64,000 nt of DNA from Escherichia coli (GTDB lineage Bacteria; Pseudomonadota; Gammaproteobacteria; Enterobacterales; Enterobacteriaceae). Of this stretch, positions 17,475-38,647 are shown piece by piece; position 1 is the stretch's first letter, and every line of letters begins with the position of its first letter. The notes under the pieces were generated by a model. The model had not been told where the DNA came from. It did no database searches and worked only from the letters and a program-made list of their open reading frames with translations. A program made the translations under genes and the position numbers. The DNA lies in the NCBI RefSeq assembly GCF_044647545.1, contig NZ_CP172818.1; one strand, 5' to 3'.

Positions 17475-17621
<147 letters not shown>

Positions 17622-33404: not shown

Positions 33405-34081
<677 letters not shown>

Positions 34082-37594: not shown

Positions 37595-37865
37595 ATGCCA
37601 CTATCGTAACAAACGCCATGTGCTTACCCTGGCGTCAAGGGTCAATACCTGCAAGAGTGCGTGGAGAGGGGAAAGGGGTCCGCATCCGCGAGCCGCAATA
37701 TACGCAGGGCTGCAAGAAGATAGAGCGAGCCGCCGTTCAGGTCAACTACTGACGAACAAATCTTTTGCGAAGGGGATTGCAAATCCGACAAAAAGTGGGG
37801 TTTTTCAGACCAAAACGCGTTGTGCCTGCATAAAAGCAGGAGTGAAGCGGCGTACCGCGACGCCG

Positions 37866-37994
37866 CTATTTATCGGAAGGTTTATCTTGCTGCGGTTTGT
37901 TGTTGACCATATCGCACAACATAGAGAGCAGCATTAACCGTACTTTAAAGGGAGAATGACTAAACACGCGCATACACCTCTTGAACTCATTCAT
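37866..37994 (-). CDS. mntS: Small protein MntS, manganese homeostasis (within the RybA transcript)
   Basis: 42 aa: MNEFKRCMRVFSHSPFKVRLMLLSMLCDMVNNKPQQDKPSDK; absent from the ORF track (below its length cutoff). Confidence 0.85.
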   Translation of the reverse strand: MNEFKRCMRVFSHSPFKVRLMLLSMLCDMVNNKPQQDKPSDK

Positions 37995-38052
37995 AAGACC
38001 TCCTGACTTGCTAATCCCGTCGATCCTTGAGGGATGATTGCATTACATACAG

Positions 38053-38087
38053 ATATAGCACAGGCTATATTATATAGCTATTGCTAA
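38053..38087. promoter_or_regulatory. Putative MntR operator (two adjacent palindromes) between mntS and mntR
   Basis: ATATAGC-acag-GCTATAT followed by ATAGC-tatt-GCTA, 60-90 nt upstream of the mntS start. Confidence 0.6.
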
Positions 38088-38179
38088 AACGTTAATTTTT
38101 TGTACCTTCGCAACTCTGGTTTACAATGTGCGCACGAAATGAGAACGCTATGTATGCGTCACCATAATGAGGAAGCACA

Positions 38180-38647
38180 ATGAGTCGTCGCGCAGGTACG
38201 CCAACAGCAAAAAAAGTGACGCAGTTAGTGAACGTGGAAGAGCACGTTGAAGGGTTCCGCCAGGTCAGAGAGGCGCATCGGCGCGAGCTTATTGATGATT
38301 ACGTTGAGCTGATTTCTGACTTGATCAGGGAAGTGGGGGAAGCTCGTCAGGTAGACATGGCTGCTCGTTTGGGAGTTTCGCAACCGACGGTGGCTAAAAT
38401 GCTTAAGCGACTGGCAACCATGGGGCTGATTGAAATGATCCCCTGGCGTGGCGTGTTTTTAACGGCAGAAGGAGAGAAGCTGGCGCAGGAAAGCCGCGAG
38501 CGACATCAGATAGTCGAAAATTTCTTGTTGGTGTTGGGCGTCAGTCCGGAAATCGCCCGTCGCGACGCGGAAGGCATGGAGCACCATGTTAGTGAAGAGA
38601 CGCTCGACGCTTTTCGTTTGTTTACCCAGAAACACGGTGCCAAATGA
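38180..38647 (+). CDS. mntR: Mn(II)-responsive transcriptional regulator (DtxR family)
   Basis: 155 aa ORF. Confidence 0.95.

Follow-up and report, generated by a model that had tools for sequence, protein, structure and literature searches.

What does the short open reading frame divergent from mntR encode, and are the two inverted repeats between it and mntR the site through which MntR controls it? The original prediction, made from the letters of the window (the whole 64,000-nucleotide stretch of DNA analysed here, which comes from an Escherichia coli chromosome), was that a 42-codon minus-strand ORF encodes MntS. This ORF occupies 37866..37994 on the minus strand, runs from an ATG through 42 codons to a TAG, and translates to MNEFKRCMRVFSHSPFKVRLMLLSMLCDMVNNKPQQDKPSDK; with a default cutoff of 60 amino acids, an ORF list would leave it out. 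The coding assignment was borne out by several comparisons. The RefSeq mntS coordinates for strain FDAARGOS_497 coincide exactly with the ORF, the predicted protein is identical to MntS of E. coli K-12 (b4705), and it matches the NCBIfam equivalog model NF033226 (small_MntS) with 96 bits against a cutoff of 36 (E = 6.3e-28). The locus is almost certainly E. coli mntS with its Mn-MntR operator, which has already been annotated and studied.

Comparison with the annotated mntS/RybA locus of K-12, for which K-12 coordinates are converted to window coordinates with an offset of 815003, places the ORF as b4705 inside rybA (b4416). There is no substantial difference between the two; they are the same locus in two E. 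coli strains and share opgE, mntS, mntR and ybiR as neighbors. Across positions 37700-38200, two substitutions in the 3' untranslated region (UTR), one at 37822 and one at 37832, separate the window from K-12, and there are no insertions or deletions. The 1.1-kb segment 37600-38700 is shared by 5421 of 5426 complete E. coli genomes; mntS, mntR and ybiR are annotated within it. The divergent gene mntR, which encodes the manganese-sensing repressor, lies at 38180..38647 on the plus strand, is annotated as such by RefSeq, and is matched by NCBIfam PRK11050 (MntR, 269 bits) and by PDB entry 2h09 (E = 1.7e-97). The mntS/rybA locus of K-12 was reportedly described by Waters, Sandoval and Storz in 2011. 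Nothing at this locus is new: mntS, RybA and repression by MntR have been known since 2011, and MntP has been known as the target of MntS since 2023-24. Its significance is that of a positive control, showing that a gene of fewer than 50 codons is recognizable from sequence alone.

When 5.8 billion proteins were searched by word index, 136 relatives were recovered. Precomputed assignments to Pfam PF26599 were attached to 120 listed relatives, and the organisms named among these are Enterobacteriaceae. Searching MntS against our local copy of Pfam gave no match, because the PF26599 model is too recent to be included in that copy, and a sequence search of the PDB with MntS recovered no solved structure. 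Across 36 diverse MntS sequences, 16 columns are invariant and define the motif MNE..RC..VF.HSPF.VRL.L.

We fetched 80 enterobacterial loci by way of their mntR genes and examined the 78 for which upstream DNA was available. An intact, ATG-started ORF of 41 to 44 codons diverges from mntR in 77 of them. The gap between the two genes measures 180 to 191 bp in 75 of these 77 loci; the two outliers are Leclercia adecarboxylata (L040), with 432 bp, and Enterobacter sp. kpr-6 (L039), with 162 bp. In the latter, box 1 (the mntS-proximal of the two inverted repeats described below) stands 51 nt from the mntS ATG, compared with 71 to 81 nt elsewhere, so its mntS leader is shorter. The substitutions themselves follow codon structure. 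Over the first 30 mntS codons, the alignment has 14, 8 and 27 variable columns at codon positions 1, 2 and 3, respectively, and pairwise dN/dS values relative to the window range from 0.01 to 0.20. Stop codons interrupt one of the other two sense frames in 77 of the 78 sequences and the second in all 78. Initiation signals are also retained: a strong Shine-Dalgarno sequence, AGGAGG, can be read at 37999..38004 on the minus strand, four bases 5' of the mntS ATG, and GGAGG is kept just 5' of the ATG in 76 of 77 related loci, with CAGGAGTA in the remaining one (L036). In these alignments, the conservation pattern is that of a translated gene, and the predicted 42-codon ORF thus proved conserved, being intact in 77 of 78 loci with coding-type substitutions.

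Only in Citrobacter sp. R56 (L015) was no mntS present within 3 kb of mntR. There, the conserved promoter sequence stops after the first ATAGC of box 1, approximately 110 to 125 nt upstream of the mntR ATG, and gives way to unrelated AT-rich DNA, which points to a probable insertion or rearrangement junction inside the operator.

These data bear on a different reading of the locus, in which RybA acts mainly as a noncoding regulatory RNA and the 42-codon ORF is incidental. The region is annotated as the noncoding RNA gene rybA in K-12, and during peroxide stress RybA has been reported to repress aroF and aroL (Gerstle 2012, according to the accounts of that work in PMC11878033 and PMC4361602). 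Martin et al. also leave room for a small-RNA role in other contexts (PMC4361602). However, the substitutions are of the coding type with low dN/dS, and the start codon, Shine-Dalgarno sequence and stop codon are kept across 77 species. The protein itself has been observed: peptide VFSHSPFKVR (residues 10-19) was seen by parallel reaction monitoring (PRM) mass spectrometry in low manganese and was absent in an mntS deletion strain, and MntS reaches about 6000 copies per cell under low-manganese conditions (PMC12529367). Chromosomally tagged MntS was likewise detected, and frameshifts at F11 or F16 abolish the phenotype of MntS overexpression, which is independent of Hfq (PMC4361602). We consider it very improbable that the ORF is incidental. 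RybA may possibly have a dual function, but the ORF is not a by-product of the RNA.

The leader of the RNA also speaks against that reading. The RybA RNA corresponds to 37722..38061 on the minus strand (852725-853064 in the K-12 annotation) and contains mntS, leaving a 5' UTR of 67 nt at 37995..38061 (minus strand), with the 5' end G38061 taken from the K-12 rybA feature. RNAalifold applied to 71 distinct 5' UTR leaders detected no conserved structure (-1.29 kcal/mol) and no covarying helix, and a scan of the whole window against Rfam at gathering thresholds returned no family at the mntS/rybA locus. A leader hairpin predicted from the single sequence (AUCCC...GGGAU) was rejected, as it has no covariation support.

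The only conserved RNA structure that we found at rybA lies after the coding region. A GC-rich hairpin, GCGGCGT-cgcggt-ACGCCGC (37847..37866, minus strand), begins at the last base of the mntS stop codon and is conserved across genera. It is followed by TTCATTTTT in most genera and by TTCACTCC in E. coli, in which the U-tract is degraded. In most genera the hairpin and the TTCATTTTT tail plausibly constitute an intrinsic terminator. In the window, a terminator scan of 37600-38250 listed none. In K-12, seven RybA species have been described that share their 5' end and range from 205 to approximately 400 nt (PMC4361602), and the degraded U-tract of E. coli fits these multiple 3' ends. An RNA of 205 nt with its 5' end at 38061 would have its 3' end near 37857, within the hairpin, which is at odds with the reported RNA lengths. 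Further downstream, between mntS and opgE (ybiP), a segment at 37760-37800 on the minus strand, TTTTTGTCGGATTTGCAATCCCCTTCGCAAAAGATTT, shows partial conservation among genera (TTTGCAA...TCGCAAAA) and may belong either to a control region of opgE or to the longer RybA species.

Turning to the intergenic region, two adjacent inverted repeats had been predicted between mntS and mntR, and both are present as described, the second being imperfect. Box 1 (38053..38070) is an 18-bp palindrome with 100% complementarity, ATATAGC-acag-GCTATAT. Box 2 (38074..38087), ATAGC-tatt-GCTAA, has one mismatch to the core ATAGC-N4-GCTAT; only its TAGC/GCTA bases pair, and nine of the ten core positions are matched. 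The centers of the boxes are 19 bp apart. To place these sites against chance expectation, we used dinucleotide shuffling of the 64-kb window. Two perfect copies of ATAGC-N4-GCTAT occur in the window against 0.04 expected, one being box 1 and the other lying in the dps promoter. When one mismatch is allowed, four sites are observed where 1.57 are expected, and a count of four is reached in 12 of 100 shuffles, so within the window box 2 by itself is not significant.

Box 2 gains its significance instead from the comparison of loci, since all 78 sequences keep it at a constant 19-bp offset. At this offset its core is perfect in 13 sequences and carries one mismatch in 63 and two in 2, while the core of box 1 is perfect in every one of the 78. 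The one-mismatch forms of box 2 nearly always have TTAGC in place of ATAGC, and the usual box 2 is TTAGC-N4-GCTAT. Among 76 distinct enterobacterial sequences, the most conserved intergenic stretch begins at AAAAAATTAACG, takes in both boxes and ends near +23. We have not met this description of the operator (an invariant box 1, a second box at a fixed 19-bp offset, and the TTAGC variant) in the literature examined, and searching full texts for the sequences of the boxes brought up no papers.

The same core recurs at the other known MntR targets. In the regions fetched from K-12, ATAGC-N4-GCTAT is found exactly once upstream of mntH and exactly once upstream of mntP. The mntH box, ACATAGCaaagGCTATGT, lies just upstream of the start codon. 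At mntP, the proximal box is ACATAGCttagGCTATAT, and a distal box, TTAGCcaaaGCTAT, is located 40 bp further upstream. The two mntP boxes are at 2270-2283 and 2310-2323 of L004, roughly 370 to 410 bp upstream of the mntP ATG, and the distal one shares its TTAGC variant half-site with mntS box 2. The dps box is ACATAGCtggtGCTATAC. The mntH, mntP and dps boxes share with mntS the palindromic core ATAGC-N4-GCTAT and (A/T)(C/T) flanks, while the arrangement of sites varies from gene to gene. mntS has two boxes 19 bp apart directly over the -10 element and +1, whereas the two boxes of mntP are 40 bp apart and far upstream, and MntR activates there instead of repressing. For mntH and dps, one clear box was found at each, in contrast to the two at mntS.

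The dps site of the window is a perfect ATAGC-N4-GCTAT, ATAGCACCAGCTAT, at 33957-33970, 50 to 63 nt upstream of the dps ATG; it overlaps a -10-like TATACT hexamer, and K-12 retains it with a single spacer change. MntR has been reported to target dps (Yamamoto et al. 2011, as summarized in PMC5553809 and cited by title in PMC5553809 and PMC10003395). The dps box agrees in sequence with the MntR core and is in keeping with the repression of dps that has been reported for MntR.

Multiple adjacent sites have a parallel in Bacillus subtilis MntR, a DtxR-family protein that belongs to the same family as the window MntR (1on1, E = 3e-17; Pfam Fe_dep_repress and Fe_dep_repr_C) and that reportedly uses several adjacent sites at exporter genes (PMC11275975). 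The family relationship is drawn from the proteins, and the two MntR proteins have only about 30% similarity (PMC8632737).

Taken with published repression of mntS by Mn-MntR (PMC4361602, PMC9806134), these observations support the proposal that the tandem palindromes form an MntR-type operator: the core is shared with mntH, mntP and dps, and both sequence and spacing are conserved. The idea that the palindromes might be bound by another regulator such as Fur, or might represent chance symmetry, is favored by the AT-rich composition of the region, the regulation of mntH and mntP by Fur as well (PMC8632737), and the lack of significance of box 2 alone within the window. However, the exact core is common only to known MntR targets among the regions examined, and sequence and 19-bp spacing are invariant across genera. 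A Fur box was rejected for the intergenic region, the near-invariant block described below included, where the best ungapped match to the 19-bp consensus is 10/19, which is the background level. Another regulator or chance is therefore an extremely unlikely source of the palindromes. More generally, this locus illustrates how a short palindrome can be validated by its recurrence at coregulated promoters together with conservation of its spacing across species.

The position of the boxes within the mntS promoter lends further weight to MntR as their ligand. A -10 hexamer, TATAAT, can be read at 38069..38074 on the minus strand, 8 nt upstream of the annotated 5' end; it abuts the core of box 1 and overlaps box 2 by one base. 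Across species, the hexamer is mostly TAnAAT (TATAAT, TAAAAT or TACAAT). Numbered from a start at G38061 that is the 5' end of a database feature, box 1 occupies -9 to +9 and box 2 occupies -26 to -13, so that box 1 is centered on the annotated 5' end and box 2 lies over the -10 hexamer and the upstream spacer. No convincing -35 hexamer was found at a spacing of 16 to 18 bp; the sequence TTAACG is 15 bp from TATAAT and 17 bp from an alternative, TAATAT. A promoter scan listed no full minus-strand mntS promoter, because no -35 hexamer reaches four of six matches. A reporter carrying an mntS promoter fragment responds to manganese only when mntR is present (PMC9806134). Because the core recurs at other MntR targets, the boxes cover +1 and the -10 element, and both are conserved, we read them as the MntR operator, and they probably coincide with the MntR footprint.

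From this arrangement, the following circuit can be proposed. mntS would be transcribed leftward from a sigma-70 promoter with its -10 element at 38074-38069 and its start at G38061. At high Mn2+, Mn-loaded MntR dimers made from the divergent neighboring gene would occupy both boxes, an occupancy that the sequence data make very probable. Given the geometry of the boxes over the -10 element and start site, bound MntR would cover both and would be expected to block RNA polymerase sterically. In low manganese, the boxes would be free and mntS transcribed, and MntS would then block residual MntP, reducing export so that the cell keeps its manganese. This last step agrees with the report that MntS binds the manganese exporter MntP and inhibits it, as found by two-hybrid assays and reciprocal pull-downs, and that MntS toxicity requires MntP (bioRxiv 10.1101/2023.06.02.543501).

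Conservation in the intergenic region does not end with the palindromes. A near-invariant block, CTGTATGTAATGCA, lies at 38039..38052 on the minus strand (+10 to +23 of the 5' UTR), outside the palindrome. In alignments of 76 and 73 distinct sequences, every column of this block is at least 90% conserved, which puts it on a par with the boxes; it is explained neither by the palindrome nor by any detectable RNA structure. It is conceivable, though rather doubtful, that the block is an undescribed functional element, such as the -35 element of mntR, a set of extended MntR contacts, or a binding site in the leader RNA.

If the block were the mntR -35 element, the boxes would act as one operator for both directions, and the mntR operon would be repressed by its own product. 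In that arrangement, back-to-back promoters would share the boxes, Mn-MntR would repress mntR-ybiR, and the 38039-52 block would supply the mntR -35 element. A promoter-like plus-strand sequence is indeed present, with ATTACA (38042-47) separated by 18 bp from TATATT (38066-71) and a start inside box 2, and ATTACA sits in the near-invariant block that nothing else explains. However, this promoter-like site matches only 9 of 12 consensus positions in an AT-rich region, and TATATT falls within box 1 and the mntS -10 region and would be conserved anyway. There is, moreover, a second conserved candidate for the mntR promoter, TTGTAC and TACAAT separated by 16 bp (38100-38127), which is nearer to mntR and has the boxes upstream of its -35 element. 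We regard a shared operator with autorepression of mntR-ybiR as unlikely and favor the boxes as the operator of mntS.

MntS has been proposed to descend from the signal peptide of SitA, a manganese-binding protein (Wright et al. 2023/2024). Using a profile of 36 MntS sequences, we searched 1.84 billion representative proteins in one pass and obtained 34 matches at E <= 1e-3, all of them of 147 amino acids or fewer. In one of these, P0151 (E = 8.6e-4), residues 16-45 (FSHSPFRLRLMLVGMM...) align with MntS residues 11-42, while residues 31-140 match Mn/Zn ABC substrate-binding proteins; P0151 is an N-terminal fragment of such a protein. The link between SitA and MntS is thereby thinly reproduced, through what appears to be one fusion protein at E <= 1e-3 in a single-pass search. 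Compared with the signal peptides of SitA, the binding protein of a manganese ABC importer, MntS is without the AXA cleavage site and without the mature binding domain, and unlike them it stands alone beside mntR.

Three further features of the window were recorded. The dps gene (33405-33907, minus strand) is frameshifted: the A6 run present in K-12 (GAGAAAAAAGC) is A5 at 33828-33832, and a stop codon follows after 29 codons. The exact 141-nt frameshifted sequence occurs in 5 of 5421 complete E. coli genomes, and in H11, the one genome of these five that was inspected, dps is annotated as a "frameshifted" pseudogene. The A5 run could stem from an error in reading the homopolymer or from a genuine but rare loss of Dps. 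Between dps and rhtA, around 34023, the window contains one base more than K-12, which restores the coordinate offset after the 1-nt dps deletion. Elsewhere, Rfam identified a Moco riboswitch (RF01055) at 2146-2290 on the plus strand with 103 bits and the ES036 (CssrF) small RNA at 17544-17586 on the minus strand, with 43.3 bits against a gathering score of 37.6.
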